Positions 5,269 through 28,876 of a stretch of DNA of 64,000 nt are shown here, in pieces. Each line of letters starts with the position of its first letter. Position 1 is the first letter of the stretch. The stretch comes from an uncultured Rhodobacteraceae bacterium (GTDB lineage: Bacteria; Pseudomonadota; Alphaproteobacteria; Rhodobacterales; Rhodobacteraceae), in contig CANMMF010000007.1 in NCBI GenBank assembly GCA_947498985.1, positions 192,686 to 256,685 on the forward strand, read 5' to 3'. The position numbers and the translations under genes were made by a program. The notes below the pieces were generated by a model that saw nothing but the letters and a program-made list of their open reading frames with translations, did not search any database and was not told the DNA's origin.

Positions 5269-5359
5269 CACTGCACCTCAGGCAAGGCCGCACTCTCCTG
5301 TTCCGCCACGGCTCCTTTGGTCCTCTCATCCAGGCGGAACGTCGCGAAGGGGTCTCCTT

Positions 5360-6418: not shown

Positions 6419-6436
6419 GCGCGGCGCGGCACGGCC

Positions 6437-11515: not shown

Positions 11516-11541
11516 GGGGAGCCCTCCTTCTTATGTCCGGG

Positions 11542-11979
11542 TCAATTGTCGGGCGAGGCGCGGAAGATGTTGTTCACAAGGCTCGGGGCATCGACCTGCG
11601 GCACATGGCACTGATTGCAGAAATACCGGGTGCCCGCGATGTGATCGAGCTCATTGCCGTCGCGGTCGAGATAATGGGTCATCGACAGGGTCGGTGCGTT
11701 GCGCTCTCCGGCCTTGGTCCAGTCATGGCAGCTCAGGCACTGGTTGGCGCGCAGATCGATCTGGTATTGCTCGATGGAATGCGGGATCAGCGGCGGCTGC
11801 TGGCGGTAGTTGCGCTGCATGCGCCGCTCGACATTCTGGTAGGCCTTCCCGGGCACAACCGGATCATCCACCGCGGCACCCCGCAAAGAATAGACATCCG
11901 AGGTTTGGGCAACGGCAAGGCCGCCAGCCGCCAGAAGCGTCGCAAGCACGATATGGCTCAGTCTGATCGGCGTTTTCAT
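11542..11979 (-). CDS. napB: NapB diheme cytochrome c subunit
   Basis: Signal peptide and two CxxCH motifs (CLSCH, CNQCH). 145 aa. Confidence 0.9.
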   Translation of the reverse strand: MKTPIRLSHIVLATLLAAGGLAVAQTSDVYSLRGAAVDDPVVPGKAYQNVERRMQRNYRQQPPLIPHSIEQYQIDLRANQCLSCHDWTKAGERNAPTLSMTHYLDRDGNELDHIAGTRYFCNQCHVPQVDAPSLVNNIFRASPDN

Positions 11980-12045
11980 GAGACGATTCCCTTTGTTGTC
12001 ATGCCGCCTGGTTGTCCGGCGCCGGTGGTAGATCTGCGAGGCCGG

Positions 12046-12906
12046 TCACGGCGTCGTCGAACCGAGGGTGAATTTGAAGACGTCCATCGCGCACACGTCG
12101 ATGCAGCGGCCGCAATTGGTGCAATCGGGAGAGAGGACAAGCGGCGAGGTGCCGGGCTTGCCTTTCAGCGCGGGCGAGATGACCTGGTTTTCCGGGCAGA
12201 CATGGTAGCAATCCATGCAGTCGTCGCAGGCGGCCCGCGCGGGCGCGCTGACGCGCAGAACGGATTTGGTGCCGACCAGCCCGTAAAACGCGCCGACCGG
12301 GCAGAGATGCCCGCACCAGCCGCGCCGGGCGACCACCAGATCGAAGACGAAGATCAAGAGGACCAGCGCCCAGACAAACCCCATGCCGAAGATCAGCCCG
12401 CGGTGCAGCATCGTGACCGGGTTCACGGCTTCCCAGGCGATGGTGCCGGTGAGACCAGAGACCACGAGCGCCGCGCCGAGCAGCCAGAGCCGCGTGCCGC
12501 GTCTGGGCTGCCAACCTTTCGGCAGGCCAAGGCGCTTGTGCAGCCAGAAGGCGCCATCCGTCACCGGGTTGATCGGGCACACCCAGGCGCAATAGCTCCG
12601 CCCGCCAAGAAGCGCGTAGGCCGCCAGAACGATCCCGGCACCGATCAGCGCGGTCAGTTCGGGCCAGTGCCCGGCGACAAGGCTCTGGGCGGCGACGAAC
12701 GGGTCGGTGAGCGGCAGGATGTTCAGCGTGAGCGACCCCGCCAGCGTGCCTTGGGTGATCCAGAGGCCAAACCACGGGCCGCTCAGGAACAGCGCAAGAA
12801 AGAAGAGCTGGCTCGCGCGGCGCAGCAGCAGGTAGCGATGCGCGCTCAGCCAGCCTTTTGTCTCGCGGGCCTCGGCGCCGGCCGGAGAATGCGTGCGCGC
12901 GCTCAT
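12046..12906 (-). CDS. napH: NapH membrane-bound ferredoxin-type quinol dehydrogenase
   Basis: Four TM segments and Cys clusters (CPINP, CGHLCP, CxxCxxCxxxCP twice). Overlaps the napG stop (ATGA). Confidence 0.88.
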
Positions 12907-13721
12907 TGGCCTGCCCCGTCAAGCCGGAACGCGGGCTCGAACCCGCCTGGCGCCACCAGGTTGTCGGTGCCCGGGCCGGGCAGCCGGTCAGGCAGGTCGA
13001 TCACACCCTCGACAAGCGGCGCGCCGCGGGCGTCCTTTTCCTCCCAGCCGCGGCGGTAGTGATCGGCCGTTTCCGCGCGCGCCAGCCGCACCGGCAGCAC
13101 TTTGATCGCCGCTTCGGGCAAGACGCAGCTGTGCTCGCATTTGCCGCAGCCGGTGCAATGTTCCGCATGCACGGTGGGCGCAAAGGTCGCGTGATGGCCC
13201 GAACGTGAGTTGTGCGAGGCCTTGAGCGTAATCGCCTCGTCGATCACCGGGCAGACCCGGTAGCAGACATCGCAGCGCAGCCCGAGAAAGTTGAGACAGT
13301 TTTCCTGATCGACCAGAACCGCGACGCCCATCTGCGCGTCGTCGATATCCTCCAGCGACGCGTCGAGCGCGCCGGTCGGGCAGGCCGCGACGCAGGGGAT
13401 GTCCTCGCACATCTCGCACGGGACATCGCGCGCGGTGAAATAGGGCGTGCCCGTGGCCGCGCCATCGATGCCCAGTTCGGCCAGTTTCAGTGTGTCGTAA
13501 GGACAGCCGCGCATGCACAGGCCACAGCGGATGCAGGCCGACAGGAACGCGTCTTCGTCAAGCGCTCCGGGCGGGCGGATCGCGTCTGCAGGCAGCGCGC
13601 GGGCATCCCGGGCGAGATAGGCCAGCGCAGAGCCCGCAAGCACGCAGCCGCCCGCCGCCCGCGCCGTGTCCGTGAGGAACCGGCGGCGGCTGGCAGAGCG
13701 CAGAGTGTCGAGCATGGGCAT
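12903..13721 (-). CDS. napG: NapG periplasmic ferredoxin-type protein
   Basis: Trimmed to ATG 13721 ([18 protein letters not shown], a Tat signal). Four 4Fe-4S Cys motifs. Confidence 0.88.
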
Positions 13722-13746
13722 CGCTTGGTCTATTCCCCGGACCCGA

Positions 13747-16251
13747 TCAGGCCCGGACCACCCGGCAGGCGCATTTCTTGAAATCGGTCTCTTTCGAGAT
13801 CGGGCAGGTGGCGTCGAGCACAAGCTTGTTGGTCAGCTGTCCCTCATCGAACCACGGCATGAACACGACCCCCGGCGGCATCTTGTTGCGACCGCGGGTT
13901 TCGACGCGGCTCAGAACCACACCGCGACGGGTCGAGATCTCGATCTCCTGTCCGCGTCGCACACCGCGGTCACGGGCGTCATCGGGATGCATGTAGACCA
14001 CCGCCGCCGGGAAGGAGCGGTGCAGCTCCGGCACGCGGCGGGTCATCGAGCCCGAATGCCAGTGCTCCAGCACCCGGCCGGTCACAAGCCAGAGGTCATA
14101 TTCCTCGTCGGGCATCTCGGCAGGCGGCTCGTAGGGGGCAAAGATGATGTTGGCGCGCCCGTCGGGTTTGCCGTAAAACCGAACGCCTTCGCCTTCGGGC
14201 ACATACGGGTCATAGCCTTCGCGGAAGCGGTAGAGCGTTTCCTGCCCGTCCACCACGGGCCAGCGCAGCCCGCGCGCGTTGTGGTAGACATCGAACTCGG
14301 CAAGATCATGCGCCTTGCCGCGCCCGAACTCCGCGTATTCCTCGAACAGCCCCTTCTGGACGTAAAAGCCGAAATCCTGGCTTTCCTGGTTGTTGAAGCC
14401 TTCGGCGACCTCGCTCACCGGGTATTTGTCGACCGTGCCATTTGTGAACAGCACCTCGTAGAGCGTCTTGCCGCGCAGCTCGGGCATTTGCGACAACAGC
14501 TCCTCGCCCCAGGCCTCTTCGGTGGTGAAGCGCTTGGAGAACTCCATGACCTGCCAGAGATCCGACCGGGAGTCGCCCGGGGCGTCGACCTGCTGGCGCC
14601 AGAATTGCGTGCGCCGCTCGGCATTGCCGTAAGCGCCCTCCTTCTCGACCCACATGGCGGTGGGCAGGATCAGATCCGCGGTCATCGCGGTGACCGTGGG
14701 GTAGGGCTCAGAGACGGTGATGAAATTTTCGGGGTTCCGGTAGCCCGGGATCCCCTCCTCGTTCATGTTGGGTGCCGCTTGCAGGTTGTTGTTGCACTGC
14801 ACCCAATGGCAGTTGAGCTCGCCATCCTTGAGTTTGCGGTGCTGCAACACGGCGTGAAAGCCGGGCTTGGACGGGATGGTGCCCGCCGGGACACCCCAGG
14901 CGGTCTCGCAGATCTCGCGGTGGGCGTCGTTCATCACCACCATGTCGGCGGGCAGACGGTGGGCGAAGGTGCCCACTTCGCGCGCGGTGCCACAGGCCGA
15001 CGGCTGTCCGGTGAGCGAGAAGGGCGAGTTGCCGGGCTCCGCGATCTTTCCGGTCAGCAGGTGGATATTGTAGAGCAGCCCGTTGACCCAGGAGCCGCGC
15101 GTGTGCTGGTTGAACCCCATGGTCCAGAGGCTCATGACCTTGCGGTCGGGATCGGCATATTGCTTCGCGAGCCGCTCGAGGCTCGCTGCGGGCACACCCG
15201 ACAGCCCGGACACCTTGTCGAGCGTGTAGTCGCTGACGGCCGCGGCGTATTCGTCAAAGCTCATCGGGTCGAGCTTGCCGTGCTTGCCTTCATGCGAGGG
15301 GTTCTCGGCGGCCTGCTCGAGCGGGTGCGTGGGCCGCAGCCCATAGCCGATATCGGTGGCCGTGCGGGTGATGTTCACGTGATTGGCGACGAACTCCTCG
15401 TTCACCGCACCGGTCTGGATGATGTAATTCGCGATGTAGTTCAGGATCGCGAGATCGGTCTGCGGAGTGAAAATCATGCCGTTATCGGCCAGCTCGAAGG
15501 ACCGGTGCTCGAAGGTCGACAGCACATGCACCTCTGCACCGGGCTTGGTCAGGCGCGTGTCGGTCAGGCGCGACCAGAGGATCGGGTGCATCTCGGCCAT
15601 GTTCGAGCCCCAGAGCACAAAGGTGTCGGCATGCTCGAGATCGTCATAGCAGCCCATCGGCTCGTCGATGCCGAAGGCGCGGATGAAGGCGGCCACGGCA
15701 GAGGCCATGCAGTGGCGCGCGTTGGGGTCGATATTGTTGGACCGCAGCCCGGCTTTCATGAACTTGGCGGCGGCATACCCTTCCCAGACGGTCCATTGAC
15801 CGGACCCGAAGATGGAGACCGCGCTCGGCCCCTTGTCGCGCAGCGCCGCCTTCCATTTCTCGGCCATGACGTCAAAGGCTTCGTCCCAGCTGACCGGCTC
15901 GAAACGTCCGTTCTTGTCGAAGACACCGTTCGACTTGCGCAGCAGCGGCGTGGTCAGACGGTCTTCGCCATACATGATCTTGGACAGGAAATAGCCCTTG
16001 ATGCAGTTCAGCCCGCGGTTCACCGGGGCATCGGGGTCGCCTTGCGTGGCCACGACGCGGCCCGCCTTGGTGCCGACCAGAACCGAGCAGCCGGTGCCGC
16101 AGAACCGGCAGGCCGCCTTGTCCCAGCGGATATCCGATCCCGTCGTCTGCGCCGCCGCCTGACCTGTCGCGAGCGGGATACCGGCAGCGGAGGCCGTCGC
16201 GGCGGCGGCGCTGGCCTTCAGAAAGCTGCGGCGCGAATTAGATATGGTCAT
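13747..16251 (-). CDS. napA: NapA periplasmic nitrate reductase catalytic subunit
   Basis: Trimmed to ATG 16251 ([24 protein letters not shown], a Tat signal). N-terminal CRFCGTGC 4Fe-4S motif. 834 aa molybdopterin oxidoreductase. Confidence 0.95.
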
Positions 16252-16540
16252 TGTGCTGGCCTCCGTTTGGGCGGGAAAGAGGTGACGGCCGGGCGGCATC
16301 GGGGCTGCCGGTCTCTTCGAAATGGTGATAGGTCAGCGTCAGCGAGACGACGCCCGGGATCTGGTGCAGATCCATGATGATTTCGGAGGCAAACCGGGTC
16401 GCGGTGTCTTCGACGACAACCACGATCCGCCCGTCCTCGTTCTGCGCGTGCACTTCCGCGCCCTCCGTGGCGTCGATCGCGTGGATCGCTGCCGCGGCGC
16501 TGTCGGGCACGACATGCACAAGGCATCCGCAAATATTCAT
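16238..16540 (-). CDS. napD: NapD chaperone
   Basis: [10 protein letters not shown]... is the typical NapD N-terminus. Overlaps the napA start and the napF stop. Confidence 0.85.
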
Positions 16541-17043
16541 GTCGCCTCCTCAAGGTCGGGGTGTTCGCTGAGCGTGATGGCCGCGGCGGGGCAGATGCCG
16601 ACGCAGGCGCCGCAGCCGGTGCAGAGCCCGGTGTCGACGGCGATCCGGCCCACCCGACCCGCGCGCAGATCGAAGCGCAACGCGCGCTCGTCGCAGAAGT
16701 CGGTACAGGTTCTGCACGACACGCCGTCATTCAATAGGCAGCCCGGGCCGAGCGTCGCCGCAAGCGTCCATGGCCGCTGGTCCGTGGCCTCGAAGACCGC
16801 TTCCTCGCAGGCATCGGCGCACTGGCCGCAAAAGGTGCAGGCGTCTGCCCTGAAGCTCAGCTGCGGGGTGCCGGCGGGCCCATCAAAGAGGATGCCTTGC
16901 GGGCAGGCCCTGATGCAGGCGCCGCAGGATGTGCATTTGTCCCGGACCCGAAGCTCGGTTGTCCAGGGAGGACGCTGCACGGATCCGCGCCATGCCGGCG
17001 GATTGTCAACGGCGGCGGAAGATATGCGGCGAGCCAGGTTCAT
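16537..17043 (-). CDS. napF: NapF ferredoxin-type protein
   Basis: 168 aa with several CxxCxxCxxxCP motifs. First gene of the nap operon. Confidence 0.85.
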   Translation of the reverse strand: MNLARRISSAAVDNPPAWRGSVQRPPWTTELRVRDKCTSCGACIRACPQGILFDGPAGTPQLSFRADACTFCGQCADACEEAVFEATDQRPWTLAATLGPGCLLNDGVSCRTCTDFCDERALRFDLRAGRVGRIAVDTGLCTGCGACVGICPAAAITLSEHPDLEEAT

Positions 17044-17182
17044 CGGCGCGGCGTCACCGGAGCCGCGGGCTTGCGCGACGGGCCAGGCCGGCAGGCACGC
17101 GCCACCCAGCGACCATACCCTCGTGTCCCAGACACCATTTCAGCGCCGTCGACCAATGATTGCCCCTCCGGAGTTTTTCCCG

Positions 17183-17224
17183 ATGCTAAGGGCGCGCGCG
17201 GCGCTTTCCCTTGACGAAAGTCAA
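17183..17224 (-). promoter_or_regulatory. FNR/CRP-family box with a class II-spaced -10 element upstream of napF
   Basis: Perfect palindrome TTGACGAAAGTCAA at 17211-17224. On the minus strand it is followed by exactly 22 nt and then TAGCAT (17188-17183). This is the geometry expected for a site centred at -41.5. Confidence 0.6.
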
Positions 17225-17543
17225 GAGCTTGGCCCGTGGCTGGCTGGCGCGGGCCGGGCAGGCGGTCGCGGGGTTGCCGCGGCCAAAGCGAGACGGGACG
17301 ACCTTTGCCGAAAGGCTGTTGCAAAGAGCGGAAGTCAGAACGCGGAGTGCCGTCCTTCGCGGTCCCCTCGGGTGGCCAGAGACGCCTGCGCAGGTTTGCG
17401 CCGCGGCCTTTCGGATTGCCTGCGCGTGCCTGGGACAGCCTCGCGTGGCGACGTTTTCACGCGGGGAGTGAGGCAGGCTTTCGCTCGCGCACCCGTCGGA
17501 GGAGACCCGCGGCCTTCACATCACCGAAAGCCCGCAACCAGCC

Positions 17544-17575
17544 TCAAAACCAGGTGACGCAAGGCACGGCGTCAC
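17544..17575 (-). terminator. candidate intrinsic terminator after the ANL-CphA-like gene
   Basis: Minus strand reads GTGACGC-CGTGCCTT-GCGTCAC followed by CTGGTTTTG. The 7-bp stem overlaps the TGA stop (17572-17574). The U-tract is short. Confidence 0.45.
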
Positions 17576-20500
17576 GCGGGTTCGCGCACCCAGGACGACA
17601 ATAGTTCCATCAGGGCCTTGTGGCGGTTCGGGGCGTCGCCGGTGATCGCTGGCGTGCCGTGAACATGCAGCCTGTCGACGCTTTCCAGCGGCAACGGGCC
17701 GTTCAGCAACGCGTCGTTCCTGACGAGGATCAGCAGCGCCGCCACATCGGCCGAGTGAATCATCGCCCGCACGCGCCGGGCCAGGCCGGTTGTGGCCAGC
17801 GCAATCTCGGTGCCGGAGGCGTCCCATGTCTGCGCGTCACTGGTCAGCACCGCCGCGACGCCCGCATCCTTCAACGCTTTCAGACGCGCCTCTGCCGCGG
17901 TCAACGCAGTGTCGTCACCGACAAACACCTCTACCGGAATGCGGCCGGTGCCGCCGAGCATCCGGTCAAGATAGGCCGGCAGGTTCTGCCGCGAGATCTC
18001 GGCCCCGCCCAGCAGAGGCGAGTAATTCACCTCGTTGATCACCGCGCCGGAGGTGGTCCAGGGCTCGGCGATGTCCTCGGTGATGATGTCGATGCCCGCA
18101 ACCGTCAAGCCCGAGAGCCGCGTCGCGGCAAGCGCGATGCGCAGGTTTTCGGGGTGAACCCGGTCGGAGACATCCTCATCGACACCGCCAAGCGCGGTGC
18201 TTTCGATACGCCGGAGCGCGACGAAGCGTCCCTTCTCGGGCACGTCATCCTCGGTCAGGTCCTGGGCCGCCAGCGATGCCCGGGCAAGCTCATCGATGGG
18301 CTGGATCATCGAGCGGTGCCAGGGCGGGATCGTCTCTTCGGCGGCAAGCTCTGCCGCCACAAGCTGCGCCACCGTTTGACGCCCGTCCCCGTAGACCCCG
18401 ATGGGCAGCCGCTTGACCGCGTAAAGCAACACCCCATGCGCCACAAAGAGCCGGTGGCAGACGCCCTTCGCCTGCGCCTCGACCAGCACCTTGCCTGCCG
18501 GTGAGAGCCCGAGACCGGTCCGGATCGCGCCCTCGAGATCATCGGGCCCGACTTCGACCTGGACCCCTTCGCCGCGTTCCAGATCCGCGGGTTTCACGAC
18601 CACCGGCCAGCCGATCCGCTCTGCCGCGGTGCGCGCGGCATCAAGGCTGCGCACAACTGCATGGTTGGGCACCGGCAGGCCTGCGCTGCGCAGCAAGCCG
18701 GCGGTGACATCCTTGTGGCCGGTCAGCTTGGTGCCCAGTGCCGAATCGCCCGTGGTCGTGCTGGCCGAGATCGTGCGCGCGGCCGCCCCCCAGCCCAGCT
18801 GGTAGACGCCCATGCCCAGATGGGCGAAGGGGATCTCTTTGCGGTAGGCCGCGTGCAACACGCGCAATGTCGATATGTTGACGCGGCTGTCCTGCGCGAT
18901 CCGCGGCACCGACCGCGTGATCATCGTCGCCCAGACCCGTTCGCGATTGGCAGGCTCCGGCGGGTTGGCATTGAGAAAGCGCAGATGCATGTCCGCCTCG
19001 TCGAGCGCGTTGCGGATCACCCCGGACCTGAAATGCTCCATCAGCGGCATTTCGAACGCCACATCGCAGACGCTTTTGTCATCCTCGCGCCTCCGGAACC
19101 GGATGAGCCGGATCGGATCGAAGCACGGGATGTAGCTGCGCAGCAGCAGGGCGCGGGTGACCATCAGCACATATCCCAGCCAGACCTCGGCATCGGAGGC
19201 GGCCTTGGACGGGCTGGGCAGATCGTCGGCGGCGGGGCAGGGCAGCACGTCGTCTTTCAGGTAAGGATCCCACAGCGCCAGCGTCGCGGCCGAGACCGCG
19301 GACGGGATCTTGAAGGTCAGCGACATGGCGCGCCGGATCTGCCGTGACGGTCCCTTGCTCTTCAGCGGTCGCGCGGCGTGGCGCGCCGCCTGCACCTCGA
19401 CCGGCCTGCGCCCGGTGTCTTGCGGCTGCAGTATAAGGTCGCGCAATTCGGAGCGGATCAGCTTGCCCTGCGCGTTGCGCGGCAGCGCGGCGGTGATCAC
19501 CACCTGGCGCGGTCCGCGCTGCCCCAGCGTATGGCGCGCAAATGCCAAGAGCTCCTCCGGCGTCGCGAAATCCCCGTCTTTCAGAGAGACCAGACAGACC
19601 GGAACAGCCTGATGCACGGCATGTTCGAGGGGAAACGCGGCAACTTCGTTCACCGCCGGATGCCGCGCCATCACATGCTCGATCTCGGTGGGATAGATGT
19701 TGATGCCGTCGAGGATCATCATCTGGTCCGCGCGCCCGCAATGGACCATCTGCCCGTCATCGGACCATTTGGCCAGATCGCCGGGATAGAACCAGTCGCC
19801 GCGGAACCGCTCCGACCGGGCGCCGCCGACATAGCCGGTGATCTGGCCGGGATCCTTGATCCGGATCCGTCCCACCTCGCCCGGCCCCAGCGGCTGGTCG
19901 TCATCGTCCACGATCTCGAGCGTGGCGGGGGGCTGCGGCCGGCCCACCGTGTCGGCGACTTTCGGCAGATCCTCGGGCTGAGCAAATGTCAGCGTGCCGA
20001 CCTCGTTTGCGCCGTAATTGATGCTCAGCCTGGCCTTGAGGCGGTTGCGCAGATCGGCGCGCAGGGTCTCGCTTACCGGGGAGGCGCCAATCGACACCTT
20101 TCGAATGCCCGAGAGATCAATACCGGGATGGGTTTCGGACTGCTGCAGCATAAGATGCGCATGCAACACCGTCAGGTGCAGGAAATCCGGCTCTGCCGCG
20201 ACGATGGCGGGCAGAAGGTCCGTTTTCTGATCCCAGACGACGCAGGTGGCACCGGTCATGACCGAGCTCAGGAACCGGTCCGTCGGGGTTGCGAAAAAGA
20301 GCGGCGAGACCAGCATGAAGCGCTGCCCCTCGCGCAGGTCGAATATCCGGCGCAGCTTCTCCTGCCGGGCTTTCAGCATTGCATGTGTGAGCGGCATCAG
20401 CAGCGGTTTGCCGGTGGTGCCCGAGCCTGCGATGATCTTGCCGAAATGCGCAGGCGCTTCGTCGATCAGGGCGGCATCCGGCTGCCCGGCTGGCAGGGCG

Positions 20501-20880
20501 GATGTATCAAAGTGGATGTGGTCGACCCCGGCGACGGCCTTTTTGGCATCCGACACGACCAGAAAGCGCGGCGCGGCCTCTGCCAGAAGCTCGTGGAGCT
20601 GCGTTTCCGTCAGGCTGGGCGAGATGACAAGCGGCGTTGCACCCAACCGGATGCCCGCAATCAGCATCACTGCCAGGTCGGTCTGCGTGTCGAGCCGCAG
20701 GGCCAGCACGTCGCCGGGAGCCGTGCCGCTTTCCGCCAGAACGCGCGCCGCCGCCCAGCAGGCGCTGTCGAGCTGCGCAAAGGTCATCCGGTGCGCCCCG
20801 ATGACGAGCGCGGGCGCCTCCGGCGTGCGCTCTGCGGCCCGGACAAGCTGGGAGGTGATGTTGCCGTGAAACTCTGTCAT
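17572..20880 (-). CDS. fusion protein: N-terminal ANL (acyl/aryl-CoA synthetase-like) adenylating domain plus cyanophycin-synthetase-like N domain and ATP-grasp domain with a degenerate tail, 1102 aa
   Basis: aa 1-485 carry the ANL core motifs AGSGTTGKP, YGANEVG, GDLAKWSDDGQMVHCGRADQMMILDGINIYPTEIE and PRNAQGKLIRSEL. aa ~515-975 are colinear with CphA N+G domains (STLRVLHAAYRKEIPF, GWPVVVKPADLERGEGV, CHRLFVAHG, HPENLRIALAATRLSGLTVAGIDIITEDI, GAVINEVNYSPL). The tail GRIPVEVFVGDDTA lacks a P-loop. Confidence 0.85.
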   Translation of the reverse strand: MTEFHGNITSQLVRAAERTPEAPALVIGAHRMTFAQLDSACWAAARVLAESGTAPGDVLALRLDTQTDLAVMLIAGIRLGATPLVISPSLTETQLHELLAEAAPRFLVVSDAKKAVAGVDHIHFDTSALPAGQPDAALIDEAPAHFGKIIAGSGTTGKPLLMPLTHAMLKARQEKLRRIFDLREGQRFMLVSPLFFATPTDRFLSSVMTGATCVVWDQKTDLLPAIVAAEPDFLHLTVLHAHLMLQQSETHPGIDLSGIRKVSIGASPVSETLRADLRNRLKARLSINYGANEVGTLTFAQPEDLPKVADTVGRPQPPATLEIVDDDDQPLGPGEVGRIRIKDPGQITGYVGGARSERFRGDWFYPGDLAKWSDDGQMVHCGRADQMMILDGINIYPTEIEHVMARHPAVNEVAAFPLEHAVHQAVPVCLVSLKDGDFATPEELLAFARHTLGQRGPRQVVITAALPRNAQGKLIRSELRDLILQPQDTGRRPVEVQAARHAARPLKSKGPSRQIRRAMSLTFKIPSAVSAATLALWDPYLKDDVLPCPAADDLPSPSKAASDAEVWLGYVLMVTRALLLRSYIPCFDPIRLIRFRRREDDKSVCDVAFEMPLMEHFRSGVIRNALDEADMHLRFLNANPPEPANRERVWATMITRSVPRIAQDSRVNISTLRVLHAAYRKEIPFAHLGMGVYQLGWGAAARTISASTTTGDSALGTKLTGHKDVTAGLLRSAGLPVPNHAVVRSLDAARTAAERIGWPVVVKPADLERGEGVQVEVGPDDLEGAIRTGLGLSPAGKVLVEAQAKGVCHRLFVAHGVLLYAVKRLPIGVYGDGRQTVAQLVAAELAAEETIPPWHRSMIQPIDELARASLAAQDLTEDDVPEKGRFVALRRIESTALGGVDEDVSDRVHPENLRIALAATRLSGLTVAGIDIITEDIAEPWTTSGAVINEVNYSPLLGGAEISRQNLPAYLDRMLGGTGRIPVEVFVGDDTALTAAEARLKALKDAGVAAVLTSDAQTWDASGTEIALATTGLARRVRAMIHSADVAALLILVRNDALLNGPLPLESVDRLHVHGTPAITGDAPNRHKALMELLSSWVREPA

Positions 20881-21098
20881 CTGAAAAACACCAATAACGT
20901 TTGACTCAATTTACTCTGGAACACTGTCAAAAATTTGCCGCCGCAGGGTGGGGCGTGGACCATTCTATGGCTTCTATCGGGCAGGCGGCCGCGAAATGGT
21001 GGCATTTGCCGGACGGGTCCTGCAAGCGCGAATGCGCGGCGGACCGTGGGGCGGTCAGGCATCCGGCACCCATTTGGCGCGCGTGACGCCCGCAATGG

Positions 21099-23075
21099 TC
21101 ATGGACTCCGCTCGTCAAGGACCGGATCGTCTGCCAGCGCCCGGGCCACCACGAACGCGATGGCCAGAGGAGCGCCCTCAATGCCATCGTAAGGCGCGTT
21201 TTCCGGACGCGGATCTTCGCCCGGGGGTTTCCAGAGAACGGTCTGGCCCTCCGATGGCTGCACGGCGCTGACAGCCTGAACGGTGCGCCCCCGGATGTCG
21301 TCGGTCAGGCAGACAAGCTGCGGACCGCGCCGCTCGCCGGACCGCAGCAGATCGAGGTCAGTGTCGGAGACGATGGCCGTGGATGCCGCGCGCCCGAGGC
21401 AGATCAGCGCGTCGCGTCCGGCGGCACTCAGCCTGCCCGTGGCCACAACCACATCGACCCGGTCGACGCCGAGGCCCTGCTCCAGGACCTCTTCGGGCGT
21501 GAGCGACAGGATCGCGCATTCGGTACGCGGGTTGGTCAATGCGATCCGGGTTCTGCGCGGCGCGGTTGCCGATGCCCCGGCGGAGAGAGGAACCCCGGCA
21601 ACAATCACGTCGCCCGGGACCGACAGGGCCAAGCCGCGCATGTTGCCCGCAAGACTTGCAGCCAGCGCCTGTGCGATATCGGGCGTGTCGGACAGACAGA
21701 CCACGGTCGGCACGCGCCCCTTGCGGGGCCCCGGAAAAAACCGGCCGATGACCCTGTCCTCGATGAAGAATTCGGCCTCCGCCTGCATGAAGCCCGGTGT
21801 CGGGTTCACCTCGATCAGCGCGCCGCCGTTTTCGGTGAGCGGGCGGGTGATGTCCTTCGACTGAACGTCGATGCCCGCAAGGTCGAGACCAAAGACATCC
21901 GCCGCCATCTCCACGATGGCCCGGTTCGCCTCGTGCACCTGATCGGTCACGTTCTCGATTGTTCCGCCCTGAGACAGGTTGGTGTTGGTGCGCAACAGCA
22001 CCGCCTGACCGCGCTCCGGCACGCTCTCCAGATCGAGGCCCGCGCGTTCCAGCGTATGCACCAGCCCAGCATCCACCTTGATCTTCTTCCAGTCGAGGCT
22101 GAGATGATCGGTTCGGGTGGCGTTGGCCTGCTCGATAAGCTCTGCCACCTTGTGCTTGCCGTCCCCCACAACCTGCGCCGCTTTCTGGCGCACCGCCGAG
22201 ATGCATTTGCCGTCATGCACAAGCAGCCGGTGGCCGTCCCCCTCCACATGTTTCATCACCAGCACTTCACCGTGTTTCTGCGCCAGCTCGAAGGCTTTGG
22301 TCACGGTGTCGCGGTCTCGGATATTGGTGGTGATGCCGATGCCGAAATCGGTCCGCGTGGGTTTGATCACCACCGGCCAGCCGATGCTTTCGGCGATTGC
22401 AAGCGCGTGCGCCGCGTCCCGCGCAAGCGCCTGTTGCGGCACCGGAAGCCCCGCGTCATGCAGCATCGCACCGGATGTGTGTTTGGGCGTGCTGAACACG
22501 ACGCCGATCTCCGAGGTTTCGGGCGTCATGTTGCGCCAGAAGAGCCGGCGCTTGCGTCCCTGTCCCAAGGCCATCAGCGGCATGGTGGAACCGGAGATGA
22601 ACTGCCACGGAATGTCCTGGCGCAGCGCAACCCGGGTCGAATAATGGGCCATGCGCGGCTGCCAGAGATCGGTCAGGCGGGTCAGGATCGCCTGCGCCTT
22701 GGCGGCGTCAACCTCCCTGCCCGCAGGAGGGGTGAAGAGCGTGACAAGCGTCCGCAGGATGTCCCGCCCCAGCCCGAGCGTCAGACATTCAAACCCCTTG
22801 CGCGCGGCGGATCCGTTTTCGGCCACGGCGATCACGCGCATATCCGCTACGCCAAGTCCGGTCTGCATGTGAACCGCAAACCGCGCAAGAACCTCACCGG
22901 CATCGTCCCCGCCATCTGCATCGAAGGGCGCCTCGGCCGTTCCATAAAGCAGGCCAAAGAGATGCCGGGCCTGCCTGGGGATGTCCTGCCCGCCCGCCTC
23001 GATCTCCCGGAACAGGATCACCGGGCGCGTCGCAAACCGGTTTGTCGCCTCGAACATCTGTGGGGTTACGCGCAT
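21099..23075 (-). CDS. cyanophycin-synthetase-like protein (N domain plus ATP-grasp domain, inactivated and truncated Mur-ligase-like tail), 658 aa
   Basis: ATP-grasp motifs GWPVVIKPTRTDFGIGI, GHRLLVHDGK, GGTIENVTDQVHEANRAIVEMAADVFGLDLAGIDV and GALIEVNPTPGF. The following segment, GRVPTVVCLSDTPDIAQALAASL ... ECAILSLTPEEVLEQGLGVDRVDVVVATG, is colinear with the CphA M domain but has no GxxGKT P-loop. Confidence 0.85.
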   Translation of the reverse strand: MRVTPQMFEATNRFATRPVILFREIEAGGQDIPRQARHLFGLLYGTAEAPFDADGGDDAGEVLARFAVHMQTGLGVADMRVIAVAENGSAARKGFECLTLGLGRDILRTLVTLFTPPAGREVDAAKAQAILTRLTDLWQPRMAHYSTRVALRQDIPWQFISGSTMPLMALGQGRKRRLFWRNMTPETSEIGVVFSTPKHTSGAMLHDAGLPVPQQALARDAAHALAIAESIGWPVVIKPTRTDFGIGITTNIRDRDTVTKAFELAQKHGEVLVMKHVEGDGHRLLVHDGKCISAVRQKAAQVVGDGKHKVAELIEQANATRTDHLSLDWKKIKVDAGLVHTLERAGLDLESVPERGQAVLLRTNTNLSQGGTIENVTDQVHEANRAIVEMAADVFGLDLAGIDVQSKDITRPLTENGGALIEVNPTPGFMQAEAEFFIEDRVIGRFFPGPRKGRVPTVVCLSDTPDIAQALAASLAGNMRGLALSVPGDVIVAGVPLSAGASATAPRRTRIALTNPRTECAILSLTPEEVLEQGLGVDRVDVVVATGRLSAAGRDALICLGRAASTAIVSDTDLDLLRSGERRGPQLVCLTDDIRGRTVQAVSAVQPSEGQTVLWKPPGEDPRPENAPYDGIEGAPLAIAFVVARALADDPVLDERSP

Positions 23076-23078
23076 GGC

Positions 23079-23312
23079 TCACCGATTCTGCGCGCTGCGG
23101 CCAAAGGTGTCGTCAAAGCCTTGCTCCCTTGTCACGGCAGGCGAATGCCCGGGGGGTCTCGGGGTGCCGTTCAGCCGCCAGACCGCCCGATCCCACACAA
23201 ATTGCGGGAAAAGCGCTTGAAAGGGAAGATGCCCGGAAAAGAGCATGTGCGGCGCGGTGTGTTTCGGTATCGCGCTGGTCGGCGCTCCGGGGAGTGTCGT
23301 GGCCATCGGCAC
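23079..23312 (-). CDS. possible small ORF (75-77 aa) stop-start coupled to the CphA-like gene
   Basis: GTG 23312 or ATG 23306. The TGA stop lies 3 nt before the ATG of the 658-aa gene. Third-position GC is moderately coding-like (about three quarters by my count). No recognisable family or RBS. Confidence 0.3.
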   Translation of the reverse strand: MPMATTLPGAPTSAIPKHTAPHMLFSGHLPFQALFPQFVWDRAVWRLNGTPRPPGHSPAVTREQGFDDTFGRSAQNR

Positions 23313-23363
23313 TCAAAGCGCCGGGCCGTCCTGTCGCGCCCGCCCAGACCGGGCCGAACCCCT

Positions 23364-25025
23364 TCAAGGCGAATAGGGAACATCCGCGCGCAGGATCAGC
23401 GGCCAGGGGGTTGTCTCCTCGTCCAGATCGACCTGCACTTCGATCAGGGTCGGCACATCCTCGGCGATTGCCCGTTCCAGAACCGGGCCCAGCTCTGCAG
23501 GTGAGGCGACCCGGTGCGCACTCACGCCATTCGCGTCGGCCAGTTTCACATAGTCGACGCCGGGCAGATCGCTGGCGATGGTTCGGCCCGCGAAGTTGGT
23601 CTCCTGATCCCGCGCGACATTGCCGTAGGCCTGATTGTTGAACACGATCGCAATCACGCCGATGCCGTGCTGCGCCGCGGTCGACAGCTCGGAGGCGGCA
23701 AACATGAAGCCGCCATCGCCGAGAATGGCAACCACCGGCGTCTTCGGGCACCCGACCTTGGCGCCAAGCGCTGTCGGATAGGCAAAGCCCAGGTTCCCCT
23801 GGTAGCCGGAGGTGATGTAGGTCCGCGGCTCGTAGACCGGCCACGCGAAATAGGAGGTATATCCGGCCTGGCACATGTCCTTCACGAGGATGCCGTCGCG
23901 GGGCAGGGCCTTTCGGATGACCTCGAGATAAGAGACCTGCGGCTGGATCCGGCTGACCTGCTCGGCGGCCCTGTCGCGCGCCGCTGCGATCCGCGCACGG
24001 TTGCCCGTTATCGCGAAGTCATCACCCGCAAGAGCCTCGCTGATGGCCGCGCTGCCCGTCGCGGCATCGCAGATGAGACCGGCATCGGGTTTCAGCCTCA
24101 GCATCTCTTCTGGGTCGATCTCGATCCGGATCAGCTTGCGCGGCGCGGTGAGGCGGTCGGAGGCATCCATCATGCCGCGCCACCGCATCGCCTGCATTTC
24201 GCATCGCGACCCGATGCCGATCAGGACGTCGGTGTCGCGCCACAACTCAAACGCCTCCACCGAACTGACGCAAAGCGGGTGGTCCGCCGGGACTATGCCG
24301 CGCCCGCCGCGAAACGCCGTCACCGGCGCGTCGAGCCGTTCCGCCAGCGCGATCACTTCGGACCGCGCGTGCTGCGCGCCCGAGCCGAGCATGATCATCG
24401 GGCATGTCGCGCCTTTCAGCAGCGCCGCCACCTGCGCGATGGCGGACGGATCGGGCGGGGTGTCTTGCGCGGGCCATGCCGCCTCGCTTTCGGGAACCGG
24501 CGCTGGCTGGGCCATGGTGTCCCAGCACATCTCCAGTGCCACGGGACCGGGCCGCCCGCTTGTCATCCTGTGGAACGCCTCATCGACGAGGCGGCGTGCG
24601 GACGTGGCGTTGGGAATGCGTTCGGCCCATTTGATGAACGAGGCCAGCGTCGCGCGCTGGTCGGGGATTTCGTGAAGATGCCCGCGTCCGCGTCCCAGAA
24701 AGGCCGAGGGCACCTGGCCCGTGAGCAACAGCACCGGCGCGTTCACGGCGACGGCCGTGCAAAGCGCCGCACCCGCATTCAGCACACCCGGGCCGGGGAC
24801 CACCGAAAAGACCCCGGGCCGACCGGTGGCCCGCGCATACCCCATGGCCATGTAGGCGGCGGTTTGCTCGTGCCGGGGGCCGATCACGCGGATCGTGGCC
24901 TCTGTCGTCTTGAGCGCGTCCATCAGAGGATAGGTCTGCACCCCCGGCAGCGCAAAGACCGTATCGACGCCATGGGCTGAAATCGCGTCGACAATGGCTG
25001 CACCGCCGGTCAGTGTTTTTGTCAT
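23364..25025 (-). CDS. thiamine-diphosphate-dependent enzyme (acetolactate synthase large subunit / 2-oxoacid decarboxylase superfamily), 553 aa
   Basis: N-terminal Pyr domain (RHEQTAAYMAMGYARATGRPGV) and C-terminal PP domain with GDGGF...NN (ILGDGGFMFAASELSTAAQHGIGVIAIVFNNQAYG). The GRGRGHLHEIPDQ loop resembles the AruI-like (5-guanidino-2-oxopentanoate decarboxylase) subgroup as I recall it; that subgroup assignment is weak. Confidence 0.85.
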   Translation of the reverse strand: MTKTLTGGAAIVDAISAHGVDTVFALPGVQTYPLMDALKTTEATIRVIGPRHEQTAAYMAMGYARATGRPGVFSVVPGPGVLNAGAALCTAVAVNAPVLLLTGQVPSAFLGRGRGHLHEIPDQRATLASFIKWAERIPNATSARRLVDEAFHRMTSGRPGPVALEMCWDTMAQPAPVPESEAAWPAQDTPPDPSAIAQVAALLKGATCPMIMLGSGAQHARSEVIALAERLDAPVTAFRGGRGIVPADHPLCVSSVEAFELWRDTDVLIGIGSRCEMQAMRWRGMMDASDRLTAPRKLIRIEIDPEEMLRLKPDAGLICDAATGSAAISEALAGDDFAITGNRARIAAARDRAAEQVSRIQPQVSYLEVIRKALPRDGILVKDMCQAGYTSYFAWPVYEPRTYITSGYQGNLGFAYPTALGAKVGCPKTPVVAILGDGGFMFAASELSTAAQHGIGVIAIVFNNQAYGNVARDQETNFAGRTIASDLPGVDYVKLADANGVSAHRVASPAELGPVLERAIAEDVPTLIEVQVDLDEETTPWPLILRADVPYSP

Positions 25026-25208
25026 TGGTCTCTCTCAATCGCTTTGGCTGGGTTGGGTTATCCAAATGCGCAAACCTAATCCGCCGGATCGAGATCGCAC
25101 AACTCTTTCCTGAGGACCGGAGCGCGGGTCAGCCCCGGCCTCTGGCCCGCGGCAGGCATGTGGGCAAAAAGCTGCGGTTCGGCAGAACGAGGCCAAGGCC
25201 CCTGGTGA

Positions 25209-25427
25209 TCAGCCCTTTGCCTTGGCTTCGAGCGCCCGCTCCGTGGTCCAGATCGACTCCGCACCACCCCAATGCCCGCTTTTGACCTCATGCACGCGGA
25301 CGGAGGTCATCTGCTGCATCGTCGTCCCGGCCACCTCGCCAAAGGCCTTGGCGGTTCCGGCGATTATCCGGGCCTTCTCTTCGTCGGAGAAGACCCCCTC
25401 CAGAACATGAATGTCGATCAACGGCAT
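25209..25427 (-). CDS. 4-oxalocrotonate tautomerase family protein, 72 aa
   Basis: MPLIDIHVLEGVFSDEEKARII... has catalytic Pro1 after Met removal and the typical 4-OT length and beta-alpha-beta pattern. Confidence 0.85.
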   Translation of the reverse strand: MPLIDIHVLEGVFSDEEKARIIAGTAKAFGEVAGTTMQQMTSVRVHEVKSGHWGGAESIWTTERALEAKAKG

Positions 25428-25543
25428 GCTCGCAACTCCAGATTGCCAGGACTGATTTTCACGATGGTCACACCCTTACCACGCGGCCCGAAGCACGTCA
25501 GCACCGGGCCCCAAAACCGCGCCTGACGGTGACGCAACCCCAG

Positions 25544-26241
25544 CTAGATCGCGGTGCGCAGCTGGTAGCCCGGGGCGAAGAGCAGACGCACTTTTGTGAC
25601 CGAAGACGCGTTGTCCCAGGTCACCCGGTCAATGGCGAACAACGCGCTTTGCGGTGGCACGCCCAGCGTCTCGGCGTCGCTGACCGTCGCCTGAACGGCA
25701 GAAAACCCGATATCGCCATGGGTATAGGGCGCGTGTTTCATCAGCCATTCGTTGGCGCTCACGGCCTCGAACCCTTCGGACCGGGCGCTGTGCACCACGT
25801 CTGTGTTGATCCACCTGTCCTCAATTGCATAGGGCGCATCATCGGCGAGGTGCAGCGCGCGCACATGCAGCAGCTTTGCGGCGGCGCGGGTTTTCATCGC
25901 GCCGCTGATGCTGGCGGGCGGCACGCGCTCGGCGCGTTCGATGAGCAGGTACCCGTATGTCGCCCCGTGCTCCTCCACCTCGTGGCGGATCACGGCGATG
26001 TTCAGGGTGGCCCTGGCCACCGGTTGCGCGGCCACGCGCGTGCCCGCCTTGCGCTTGCGGTCCAGCACGCCGCTTTCCGCCAGAGACCTCAGCGCGCGGT
26101 TCACGGTGGAGCGGGCGCAACCGAATTCGACGGCCAGATCCGCCTCGTTCGGGATCAGATCGCCGGGCGCCCATTCGCGTGCGTGAATGCGCCGCCGCAC
26201 CTCTTCCCGAACACTTTGCCAGTTGCGAAAGGTTGGCGTGT

Positions 26242-26245
<4 letters not shown>
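25544..26245 (-). CDS. hutC: histidine utilization repressor, GntR/HutC family
   Basis: Trimmed to ATG 26245, overlapping the hutF stop (ATGA). Winged-helix region LIPNEADLAVEFGCARSTVNRALRSLAESGVL plus a UTRA-like C-terminal domain. Confidence 0.88.
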
Positions 26246-27606
<1,361 letters not shown>

Positions 27607-27617
27607 CGTCGCTCCGC

Positions 27618-27646
27618 TTGACAGAATAATATGTGTGCACATAAAA
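27618..27646. promoter_or_regulatory. hutF/hutI divergent control region (promoter-like hexamers and a palindrome)
   Basis: The 73-bp AT-rich gap contains TTGACA (27618-27623), a 17-nt spacer, then ATAAAA. The spacer carries the palindrome TGTGCACA (27634-27641), a plausible HutC operator position. Confidence 0.4.
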
Positions 27647-27679
27647 ACATTAAGAACAGGTTTTATCAAGCGAGTCGCA

Positions 27680-28876
27680 ATGATGCTCCTCACCAATGCC
27701 CAGATCGCCACGTTGCAGGACGCTCAAGGCTACGGGCTGGTGGAGGACGGCGCCATCGCCATCGAGGGCGAGCAGATTGCCTGGGTCGGACCCGCCGGCG
27801 AGGTTCCGGCGGCGTATCATGGCGGCACGGTCCATGATCTGGGCGGCCGCCTCGTGACCCCGGGCTTGATCGACTGCCACACCCATGTGGTCTTTGGCGG
27901 CAACCGCGCTGCCGAGTTCGAGCAGCGCCTCAACGGGGCGAGCTACGAAGAGGTCGCGCGCGCCGGTGGCGGGATCGTCTCGACGGTGACCGCGACCCGC
28001 GCGGCCTCTGACGATATGTTGCTGGCAGAGGCGCTCACACGGGTGGACGCTCTGATCGCCGAGGGCGTCATGCTGATCGAGGTGAAATCCGGCTACGGGC
28101 TTGACAGAGAGACGGAGCTCAAGATGCTCCGCGTCGCGCGACAGCTTGCGCAGGCCCGACCGGTCGAGATCCGGACCAGTTTTCTGGGAGCCCATGCCGT
28201 GCCGCCGGAGTACCGGGGCAGTCCCGACGCCTATATCGACGACGTCTGCATCCCGGCCCTGCGCGCCGCCCATGCCGAAGGTCTGGTGGATGCGGTCGAC
28301 GGGTTCTGCGAGGGCATCGCGTTCGACACGGCCCAGATTGCGCGCGTCTTCGACGCGGCGGCGGCACTTGGCCTGCCGGTCAAGCTTCACGCCGAGCAAT
28401 TGTCGAATATCGGCGGCACGCGGCTCGCTGCGCGCTATGGCGCGCTCAGCGCCGATCATGTGGAATATGCCACCGACGAAGACGCCGCGGCGCTGGCGCA
28501 GTCCGGTACGGTGGCGGTGGTGCTGCCCGGCGCGTTCTACACGCTGCGCGAAACCCAGGCGCCGCCGATACAGGCCTTTCGCGATCACGGCGTGCCGATG
28601 GCGCTGGCCACCGACTGCAATCCCGGCTCGTCGCCGCTGGCGTCGGTGCTGCTGAGCATGAACATGGCCTGCACGCTCTTCCGCATGACCCCGCTGGAGG
28701 CGCTGCTGGGTGTGACCGTCCATGCCGCCAGAGCGCTGGGCGTCGCGGATCGCGGGCGGATCACGGCCGGAGCGCGCGCCGATCTTTGTGTCTGGAACGT
28801 GACGCATCCGGCAGAGCTTGCCTACCGTATCGGCTTCAACCCTCTGCACAAGCGCGTCTTCAGGGGGGCGCCATGA
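27680..28876 (+). CDS. hutI: imidazolonepropionase
   Basis: Trimmed to ATG 27680. Motifs [31 protein letters not shown]. Confidence 0.93.

Follow-up and report, generated by a model that had tools for sequence, protein, structure and literature searches.

The window analyzed here is a stretch of 64,000 nucleotides from contig CANMMF010000007.1 of an uncultured Rhodobacteraceae bacterium (assembly GCA_947498985.1). It carries two neighboring genes whose products resemble cyanophycin synthetase (CphA), the larger of which also encodes an adenylate-forming ANL domain. The original prediction, made from the sequence alone, had described both open reading frames (ORFs), and translation recovered each of them on the minus strand (Table 1). 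We refer to the CphA-like part of the fusion protein as type A and to the 658-amino-acid protein as type B. The GC content at third codon positions (GC3) is 0.79 to 0.83 for the two ORFs, which is coding-like and equal to that of the flanking genes in a window of 65% GC. Nothing suggests that either gene is a recent foreign insertion or a spurious ORF.

Table 1. Features of the ANL-CphA locus and its immediate surroundings, in window coordinates
Feature	Position	Strand	Residues or length	Description
Fusion gene (type A CphA-like module)	17572..20880	-	1102 aa	ANL, linker, N-like, ATP-grasp G, truncated dead M remnant
ANL domain of fusion	19423..20880	-	1-486	Class I adenylate-forming
Low-confidence linker of fusion			~487-507	Precedes N-like domain
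N-like domain of fusion	18877..19353	-	~510-668	
ATP-grasp G domain of fusion	17956..18876	-	~669-975	
Truncated M remnant of fusion	17575..17955	-	976-1102	Degenerate P-loop GRIPVEVFVGDDTA at 17905-17946
Type B CphA-like gene	21099..23075	-	658 aa	N, G, M-core remnant
Type B N domain	22656-23075	-	1-140	
Type B G domain	21726-22655	-	141-450	
Type B M-core remnant	21102-21725	-	451-658	Degenerate P-loop GRVPTVVCLSDTPD at 21678-21719
Intergenic spacer of CphA-like genes	20881..21098	-	218 bp	
Terminator-like hairpin with T-rich tail	17554..17575	-		Consensus scan; overlaps fusion stop codon
Thiamine-diphosphate (TPP) enzyme gene	23364..25025	-	553 aa	PRK08266 family; Pfam TPP_enzyme_N, _M, _C

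Domain content of the two proteins

The fusion's N-terminal region matched Pfam AMP-binding at residues 14 to 350 (E = 8.8e-48; 163 bits against a cutoff of 29.9) and AMP-binding_C at residues 399 to 473 (E = 5.5e-12; 46.9 bits against a cutoff of 24.5). The motifs from which an adenylation domain had been proposed were all present (AGSGTTGKP at 151 to 159, YGANEVG at 289 to 295, GDLAKW...PTEIE at 367 to 401, and PRNAQGKLIRSEL at 467 to 479). In the alignment of the fusion family, the core motifs A3 (GSGTTG), A5 (YGANE), A7 (GD), and A8 (GRAD) and the A10 lysine (Lys473) were invariant. With both Pfam cutoffs passed and these motifs in place, the domain belongs to the ANL superfamily and, judged by its motifs, appears competent for adenylation. 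Its closest PDB matches were acyl-CoA ligases, e.g., oxalate-CoA ligase (5ie0) and FadD5. The best match to a curated acyl-CoA synthetase family was PRK06187 (197 bits against 476), and all 125 hits fell below their own cutoffs. Likewise, the score against the nonribosomal peptide synthetase (NRPS) adenylation model TIGR01733 was 155 bits against a cutoff of 317, and no PP-binding domain follows; none was found in the fusion protein or in the scanned window ORFs. By eye, without a formal alignment, the A4 region reads FFATP, not the FDxS with the amino-acid-binding Asp of NRPS A4 regions.

Apart from the ANL matches, Pfam returned only weak generic ATP-grasp hits for the two proteins, with no Mur-ligase, PP-binding, or condensation domain. 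The NCBIfam model for cyanophycin synthetase, PRK14016, aligned with residues 656 to 955 of the fusion (E = 2.6e-62) and residues 149 to 546 of type B (E = 6e-88). Scores against TIGR02068 and PRK14016 (192 and 211 bits for the fusion, 267 and 296 bits for type B) lay far below the CphA1 family cutoffs of 850 and 877. For both proteins, the top PDB sequence matches were CphA1 structures (7lgm, 7lgn, 7wac, and 7lg5), ranking above CphA2 (8fxh and 7ta5) and GshAB; in type B, the CphA1 alignment spans residues 60 to 560.

AlphaFold2 models were built from family alignments that included CphA1 sequences and were compared with the PDB using Foldseek. Mean confidence was high for both type B (predicted local distance difference test [pLDDT] = 90.3, predicted TM-score [pTM] = 0.86) and residues 487 to 1102 of the fusion (pLDDT = 90.3, pTM = 0.88), with disorder in the latter limited to the first 21 residues. 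CphA1 ranked first for each model. Type B aligned with CphA1 over its full length (TM-score normalized to the query [TMq] = 0.76 to 0.80, E ~ 1e-47), followed by CphA2 (TMq = 0.59 to 0.65), GshAB (TMq <= 0.41), and Ddl, RimK, and LysX (TMq ~ 0.22 to 0.27). Type A aligned with CphA1 over 590 to 643 columns of the 616-residue model (TMq = 0.64 to 0.69) and with CphA2 at a TMq of 0.51 to 0.63. The possibility, raised in the original prediction, that these regions are generic RimK- or Ddl-type ligases is ruled out by the gap between RimK, Ddl, and LysX (TMq = 0.22 to 0.31) and CphA1 (0.64 to 0.80). Derivation of both proteins from CphA is supported.

The claim that both proteins are colinear with the N and G domains of CphA stood for the two G domains and for the type B N domain, and was weakened for the N domain of the fusion. 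Pfam PF18921 (N domain) was detected in neither protein. Compared with CphA1 N domains by hhalign, type B gave a probability of 93% (E = 2.9e-7, 135 columns), in keeping with Foldseek. The type A N-like region was colinear but nonsignificant (E = 0.04 to 0.08), so that profile comparison failed to establish it. It is, however, conserved in the fusion family (W537, P585, and F587 are nearly or fully invariant), the model is confident from about residue 515 onward, the Foldseek alignment to CphA1 extends across it, and in the models its order of helices and strands equals that of the type B N domain from the second helix of the latter on. Because the sequence profile is nonsignificant and the agreement comes from predicted structure and topology, we regard a CphA-type N domain in the fusion as probable. 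The Cx19HxxEH metallopeptidase site of the N domain, which generates primers and occurs in 83% of CphA1 sequences (PMC9262961), was found in neither protein. In place of HxxEH, type B has ExxAR and type A has YxxMV, the type A register coming from a weak alignment.

Active-site residues of the G and M regions

Residues were compared across 26 fusion-family proteins (23 with an alignable type A module), 16 type B proteins, and 13 CphA1-like proteins, with a cyanobacterial CphA1 (P0156) as the reference, whose numbering is common with that of TeCphA1. Mutagenesis and cryo-electron microscopy have shown that E215, H267, R323, N394, and R458 matter for CphA1 (PMC9427784). The Arg side chain of the primer is contacted by E215, while the Asp to be added is bound by R323, N394, and R458; the H267A substitution strongly lowers activity, and H267 is not conserved in other ATP-grasp enzymes (PMC9427784).

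The ATP- and Mg-binding Lys, Asp, Glu, and Asn residues were invariant across the alignment of type A, type B, and CphA1, and both families retain K261 and R309 of CphA1. Residues retained in the G domain of the fusion are K723, K763, R810, D931, E950, and N952, and those retained in type B are K238, R283, N366, and S368. Both window proteins thus carry the catalytic residues of ATP-grasp enzymes, and both domains look competent on this basis.

The substrate-recognition set (E215, H267, R323, N394, S396, and R458) is kept by neither family, and each departs from it differently. Relative to CphA1, the fusion carries E215→K718, H267→R769, R269→E771, and N394→S894, and further S396→A896, G456→L956, and R458→G958, with R323 kept as R824. 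Type B carries E215→V193, H267→F244, R269→I246, R323→Q297, and R458→M430. These replacements recur throughout the families: type A members have K/R at E215, R at H267, E at R269, S/T at N394, L/S at G456, and G at R458, with S396 variable and R323 kept, and type B members have V at E215, F/Y/H at H267, I/V/T at R269, Q at R323, and M/F/V at R458, with N394 and S396 kept. Because the replacements are conserved within each family, among members sharing 31 to 54% identity with the window proteins, we interpret them as two re-tooled pockets rather than as decay. Moreover, since residues that bind Asp and Arg in CphA1 are replaced in both proteins, neither enzyme would make cyanophycin, and the product is expected to be different, with which the originally proposed novel amide product is consistent. 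Assignment of either protein as a genuine cyanophycin synthetase or CphA2 was rejected on substrate residues, family scores, and context.

A M domain both inactivated and truncated had been proposed for the two proteins, and the alignments agree. The degenerate P-loop strings lie where they were claimed to be, with GRVPTVVCLSDTPD at residues 453 to 466 of type B and GRIPVEVFVGDDTA at residues 979 to 992 of the fusion, and both align to GTNGKTT of CphA1. K499 within that motif aligns to A992 in the fusion and D466 in type B, the site reading GDDTALT or SDTPDI, and the P-loop is lost in every aligned type A and type B member. The tail beyond this position had been put at about 130 to 190 residues; this holds for type B (192 residues), whereas the fusion tail is shorter (110 residues). 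With so few residues remaining, the Mlid module is missing from both. Neither protein matched the Mur_ligase Pfam domain, and a functional Mur-ligase tail was accordingly rejected.

Relatives and genomic setting

A word-indexed search of 5.8 billion clusters returned about 26 full-length homologues of the fusion (1,070 to 1,160 amino acids, 37 to 54% identity), one of them from a Porticoccaceae metagenome-assembled genome (MAG). These align end to end, and the linker and the N-like region are conserved among them. HMMER, run exhaustively over 1.84 billion representatives at 50% identity, found more than 50 proteins of about 1,000 to 1,160 amino acids that align nearly end to end in one stretch, as well as more than 50 unfused type A proteins of about 540 to 660 amino acids. 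The concern that the 1,102-amino-acid ORF might be an assembly or frameshift artifact joining two genes is dispelled by this conservation, in more than 20 aligned homologues from independent metagenomes and in more than 50 end-to-end clusters. The fusion is genuine, rare, and widespread in environmental bacteria. By BLAST, 58 of 113 type A modules have an upstream ANL domain. In a neighbor-joining tree of these 113 modules, fused and unfused members are interspersed (33 parsimony changes); because many of the "unfused" members may be gene fragments, we draw no conclusion from this pattern. The type B family is small, at about 16 clusters, and has no Pfam N-domain or Mur-ligase matches. A scan of a genome collection with the single protein returned only unrelated ANL genes, and exact matching of the window's own proteins yielded neither names nor contexts. 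In the literature, we found nothing relevant on an ANL-CphA fusion or on a CphA-like enzyme in a natural-product cluster, in agreement with the original statement that no characterized fusion of this kind was known.

ANL and CphA-like modules are combined in several further arrangements. The domain order is ANL-ANL-type A (NGM) in P0181 (1,633 amino acids), ANL-ANL-G-G in P0184 (1,965 amino acids), and ANL-G-type A in P0205 (1,472 amino acids), and in P0241 (1,158 amino acids) a type B module (38% identity) is joined to an ANL domain that belongs to the subfamily of the window ANL (41% identity). Two ANL domains are joined in P0023 and in a gene of locus L013. The latter, from a Pseudomonadota MAG, is a split version of the system: the ANL-ANL gene is followed by an unfused type A gene with 37% identity to fusion residues 568 to 1073, which adjoins the closest type B homologue (52% identity). 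In the Porticoccaceae locus L004, the order is a type B-like gene, a glycine-oxidase-like flavoprotein, a threonine-synthase-like pyridoxal phosphate enzyme, an ANL gene, and an ANL-type A fusion. A metagenome scan yielded about 45 type A loci. With the fusions above included, nine independent instances have two or more CphA-like modules together with one or more ANL domains (the window, L004, L013, L033/40, L036, L055, L097, L098, and P0205), and the ANL:G ratio is often 1:1, like that of G:M in CphA1. Together with the multimodule fusions, these instances support functional coupling where both occur. The suggested two-gene system is nevertheless not obligatory, since most fused homologues stand alone; no second CphA-like gene was found within the available flanks of L001, L006, L018, L021, L027, L032, L034, L051, and L063.

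Several other features of these loci were observed. A gene for a GT4-family glycosyltransferase of about 406 amino acids lies directly upstream of the fusion at four loci, its end abutting or overlapping the fusion start (L019, 7260-8480; L021, 4320-5531; L034, 1399-2616; L063, 7335-8561). At L024, it lies on the opposite strand (5323-6645). L004 is also flanked by glycosyltransferases, and a link to glycosylated or cell-surface products may exist. Five loci contain a short-chain dehydrogenase (SDR), and an ANL is present in three of these as well. Directly upstream of the P0184 gene lies a GNAT-BKACE fusion, which could hint at β-amino-acid or acetylated building blocks. At L014 (2692-3897, minus strand) and L015 (2264-5781), stand-alone type B genes have differing neighbors, namely a second, unrelated ATP-grasp (ATPgrasp_Ter-like) gene in L014 and a SpoIIAA-like gene and an RTX-repeat protein gene in L015 to L017, so type B can occur without type A or ANL as a partner.

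Some unfused type A genes lie in clusters resembling those for ribosomally synthesized peptides that are modified after translation (RiPPs). In nine loci, the type A gene adjoins a gene for an α-ketoglutarate (aKG)-HExxH-type peptide β-hydroxylase of about 330 amino acids (TIGR04267, 103 bits against a cutoff of 40). HExxH enzymes hydroxylate residues within peptides (PMC12636437). The RiPP-like loci, all on metagenome contigs, are L044, L045, L046, L048, L049, L053, L054, L056, L057, L059, and L069. Small ORFs of 40 to 67 amino acids beside these genes encode a leader-like motif, (L/I)xPDxS(R/K)L(L/F)GF, along with K(I/L/V)GxK repeats rich in Lys and Gly, and some end in PPPP. The small ORF is conserved in eight loci and, marginally, in L046, where it is cut by the contig edge; L048 and L054 have a different conserved peptide. 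A hidden Markov model (HMM) made from seven of the small ORFs found further copies in L069 (E = 8e-11) and L056 (E = 7.5e-10). The combination of unfused type A, hydroxylase, and small ORFs suggests that this branch probably acts on a ribosomal peptide. We found no description in the literature of a CphA-like ATP-grasp enzyme in such a cluster. Small-ORF clustering and the peptide HMM gave no match in the window or at any ANL-fused locus, and a conserved small peptide gene near the fused genes was rejected.

In the window, the gene pair is flanked by a nap operon (napF...napC, 10817-17043) and by hut genes (hutC, hutF, hutI, hutH, and hutU). The DNA of the napA region is about 78 to 80% identical to Alloyangia and Ruegeria replicons, which points to a probable Rhodobacterales host, and the fusion was not found on any PLSDB plasmid. 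The hairpin that overlaps the fusion stop codon sits between the fusion gene and the downstream nap operon. As a terminator it is only suggestive, since such sites are not above shuffle expectation in this region. The TPP enzyme gene lies upstream of type B on the same strand, 288 bp away, with a weak hairpin in between. Its product scored 734 bits against PRK08266 (cutoff, 571) and 382 bits, below the cutoff, against the 5-guanidino-2-oxopentanoate decarboxylase model PRK07524. The enzyme may supply a building block, although its membership in the system is not established, and it was rejected as a conserved partner because it does not recur at other loci. No promoter consensus or conserved small ORF was found in the 218-bp or the 288-bp spacer, and an Rfam scan of 16800 to 26500 had no match, giving no clue to a riboswitch or other RNA there. 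As originally noted, genes for a carrier protein (PP-binding), a condensation domain, cyanophycinase, and a dedicated exporter were not among the window ORFs scanned with Pfam and NCBIfam; nor was a second ANL gene. The window also has no cphA1 or isoaspartyl dipeptidase gene. An antiphage defense system was rejected, as PADLOC matched neither CphA-like protein nor the TPP enzyme.

Elsewhere in the window, positions 793-3168 (minus strand) encode a LodA-like L-lysine ε-oxidase of 791 amino acids with LodA_N and LodA_C domains. Enzymes of the LodA type are quinone-cofactor amino-acid oxidases that normally require a LodB-type flavoprotein partner. An agmatinase-family (arginase-fold) protein of 467 amino acids is encoded at 7841-9244 (plus strand). 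Its catalytic domain begins only at about residue 135 to 155, leaving an unexplained N-terminal extension of about 130 to 150 residues, unless the start codon is misassigned. Together with the TPP enzyme, which resembles 5-guanidino-2-oxopentanoate decarboxylase, it hints at catabolism of guanidino compounds in the region. A 663-amino-acid ORF at 59933-61924 (plus strand) has serial partial Pfam matches to three unrelated enzymes (SDR, profile positions 1 to 91, N-terminal; BKACE, 136 to 237, from the middle; and aldehyde dehydrogenase, 99 to 461, the C-terminal three quarters). It has the look of a pseudogene, of pieces of several genes strung together, or of an artifact of assembly or ORF calling. 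As called, the hutC ORF (25544-26347, minus strand) and the ORF for a HutF-like deiminase (26242-27711, minus strand) overlap by about 105 nucleotides. Because the HutC model match starts at residue 43, the hutC start codon is probably further downstream.

Candidate mechanism, alternatives, and known systems

Based on architecture, motifs, residues, and recurrent linkage, we propose that the gene pair specifies a system for amide-bond formation that needs no carrier protein and is descended from cyanophycin synthetase, with the ANL domain replacing activation by the M domain, a proposal to which we give an even chance of being correct. By analogy with CphA1 and CphA2, each G domain would phosphorylate a peptide-like acceptor at a terminal carboxylate and couple an incoming amine there. 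The other carboxylate-activating step, performed by the Mur-ligase-like M domain in CphA1, is lost in both proteins, and the ANL domain of the fusion would instead activate a carboxylate as an acyl-adenylate. The acyl group would then pass directly to an amine of the same growing product, creating a branch or a cap or, in a repeat unit, the alternate bond, so that the ANL domain would replace the M domain functionally and form an amide rather than a CoA thioester. Type B, with a pocket differing from that of the fusion, would add a different residue or extend the chain at another step. Both enzymes would act on one product, which we infer to be a non-cyanophycin oligo- or polyamide. Between a long storage polymer and a short oligo-amide, either defined or repeating, we lean slightly toward the latter. 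The original suggestion of a polymer is consistent with the polymerase scaffold and the stand-alone fusions, but known ANL and ATP-grasp pairs make small pseudopeptides, and unfused relatives adjoin precursor-like peptides. The variable amino-acid-tailoring neighbors and the dipeptide-forming relatives (Ngg and GshAB) likewise favor a cascade of pseudopeptide ligases, each acting once per site.

Several observations weigh against this proposal. At the position of H267, which is important for stabilizing the acyl-phosphate in CphA1, type A has Arg and type B has Phe, so the G-domain chemistry may differ or type B may be a weak catalyst. The resemblance of the ANL domain to acyl-CoA ligases is such that a CoA thioester could be its sole output. 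Most fused homologues with adequate flanks have no second CphA-like gene, including the closest (L007 and L018), and a strict one-ANL-per-G model does not fit the window, where two G domains are accompanied by a single ANL domain. Neighboring genes vary widely between loci and share no precursor-supply or export function. Finally, 218 bp separate the two genes, and neither the sequence nor the promoter and terminator scans supported cotranscription.

An iterative two-site polymerase is an unlikely alternative, though the most probable of those considered. Here, the fusion would be a functional analogue of CphA1 with the ANL domain in place of the M domain, making a long new branched or alternating polyamide, and type B would be a co-polymerase or a CphA2-like repolymerizer of its repeat unit. 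The nearest structures by far are the polymerases CphA1 and CphA2, including their N domain and M core. The strong conservation of the N-like region in the fusion family suggests a role such as chain holding, and R309, which stabilizes the acyl-phosphate at the chain end, is retained. The fusion resembles CphA1 in having two activating sites per protomer, and at many loci the fusion is found alone without tailoring genes (L001, L018, and L021), as a single-enzyme polymerase would predict. However, the N and M domains of CphA2 serve only its stability (PMC10273328), so retention of these domains is no proof of polymer handling. No depolymerase or granule-associated gene is conserved nearby, the primer-generating Cx19HxxEH site is missing, known ANL and ATP-grasp pairs yield small molecules, and the close G-domain relatives Ngg and GshAB are dipeptide ligases. 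A narrower form, which we consider rather doubtful, is that the fusion is by itself a self-sufficient polymerase of an undescribed non-Asp/Arg polyamide, with the ANL domain standing in for the Mur-ligase domain in forming the side-chain or alternate bond, in a family that would have been recruited repeatedly, including into RiPP-like clusters where it extends ribosomal peptides.

The RiPP-like loci lend some weight to a role in peptide or protein modification, in which the G domains would extend or decorate a ribosomal peptide or protein, like RimK on S6 or a RiPP maturase, and the ANL domain would acylate the same substrate. CphA G domains do act on a peptide C terminus, and unfused type A relatives adjoin the hydroxylase and conserved small ORFs; yet the association is limited to unfused loci, and the spacers in the window hold no conserved small ORF. 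Because the peptide and hydroxylase genes are absent from the window, as from every ANL-fused locus, this is a minority possibility for the window fusion, and we judge it improbable. It is very unlikely that one or both proteins are decayed, noncatalytic relics serving as inactive scaffolds or regulators. Type B would be the prime candidate, having F/Y/H at the position where H267A strongly reduces CphA1 activity (PMC9427784) and I/V/T for R269. Against this, the ATP- and Mg-binding residues and R309 are invariant, the substitutions are conserved over type B members at 31 to 50% identity, indicating selection for a new pocket, the ORFs are intact with coding-like GC3, and H267 is not conserved in other ATP-grasp enzymes (PMC9427784). 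Least probable of all is a role in cyanophycin metabolism, with both proteins acting like CphA2 to repolymerize β-Asp-Arg or β-Asp-Lys dipeptides and the ANL fusion being incidental. The N-G-truncated M architecture and size are common with CphA2 (PMC10273328), and some sources label family members "cyanophycin synthetase." At the E215 position, however, type A has K/R and type B has V, replacements also affect R458, H267, and R269, both proteins are nearer CphA1 than CphA2 in sequence and structure, and the window of this Rhodobacterales, not cyanobacterial, host has no cphA1, cyanophycinase, or isoaspartyl dipeptidase gene. Nor would an incidental ANL fusion be expected to be conserved in more than 50 clusters, as this one is.

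To our knowledge, among enzymes of this fold that polymerize amino acids without a template, only the cyanophycin synthetases are well understood, with just two functional types, CphA1 and CphA2. The present analysis defines two further families in which M activity has been lost, the G pocket has been re-tooled, and coupling to ANL domains has arisen repeatedly by fusion or neighborhood. Two known kinds of enzyme are thus combined in a new and conserved way in an uncharacterized family. Its characterization could bring to light either a natural poly- or oligo-amide of a new kind or a novel way of making pseudopeptides without a carrier. Fused amide ligases with two chemistries would be of biocatalytic interest and would show how a polymerase scaffold is reused. 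The unfused relatives beside precursor-like peptides hint at an unrecognized class of peptide-modifying ATP-grasp enzymes.

The systems closest to the proposed carrier-independent amide ligase are the cyanophycin synthetases themselves. The G domain of CphA phosphorylates the chain at its C-terminal carboxylate, to which an amine is then added (PMC9427784). CphA1 uses its M domain for the second amide bond, that of the side chain, whereas CphA2, of about 630 amino acids, works by its single active G domain alone, alongside an N domain and a truncated inactive M domain (PMC10273328). The window proteins share with CphA1 (TeCphA1, 7wac/7wae; SuCphA1, 7lg5; AbCphA1, 7lgm), their best match, the order of N, G, and M core, K261 and R309, and the catalytic residues. 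They differ from it in having no P-loop, Mlid, or Cx19HxxEH site, in the replacement of E215, H267, R269, N394 or R323, and R458, and, for the fusion, in an N-terminal ANL domain found on no described CphA. With CphA2 (7ta5 and 8fxh/8fxi) they share the reduced N-G-truncated M architecture. They are nevertheless farther from CphA2 than from CphA1 (TMq of 0.51 to 0.65 versus 0.64 to 0.80), CphA1 outranks it in sequence as well, and the acidic residue for Arg side-chain binding (E215 in CphA1 numbering, here K/R or V) is not kept. Their context also differs, being neither cyanobacterial nor cyanophycinase linked and including an ANL partner. The loss of M activity was probably independent of that in CphA2.

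The combination of two chemistries has its nearest parallel in the pathways to dapdiamide, E-64, and cystargolide, each of which pairs an ANL-type amide-bond synthetase with an ATP-grasp ligase and uses no carrier protein (PMC12568646). There, as here, adenylate-forming and acyl-phosphate-forming ligases are co-encoded with no carrier (DdaG/DdaF for dapdiamide, Cp1D/Cp1B for E-64, and CysC/CysD for cystargolide). The likeness lies in the proposed logic of successive amide bonds. In the window, however, the two activities share one polypeptide, the ATP-grasp part is CphA derived with an N domain and a dead M domain, and the products of those pairs are small molecules. Co-encoding, fusion, and the absence of a carrier domain are seen here directly, and direct amidation by the ANL domain is predicted. 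Finally, Ngg (N-acetylglutaminylglutamine synthetase, TIGR03103) and GshAB have an ATP-grasp domain related to the G domain (type B, E = 4.6e-41 and 1e-37, respectively; GshAB TMq ~ 0.4). In both, an ATP-grasp domain of the same clade is fused to another enzyme and makes a dipeptide, but the fusion partners are GNAT and GshA, there is no CphA N or M domain, and their scores are much weaker than those of CphA1.

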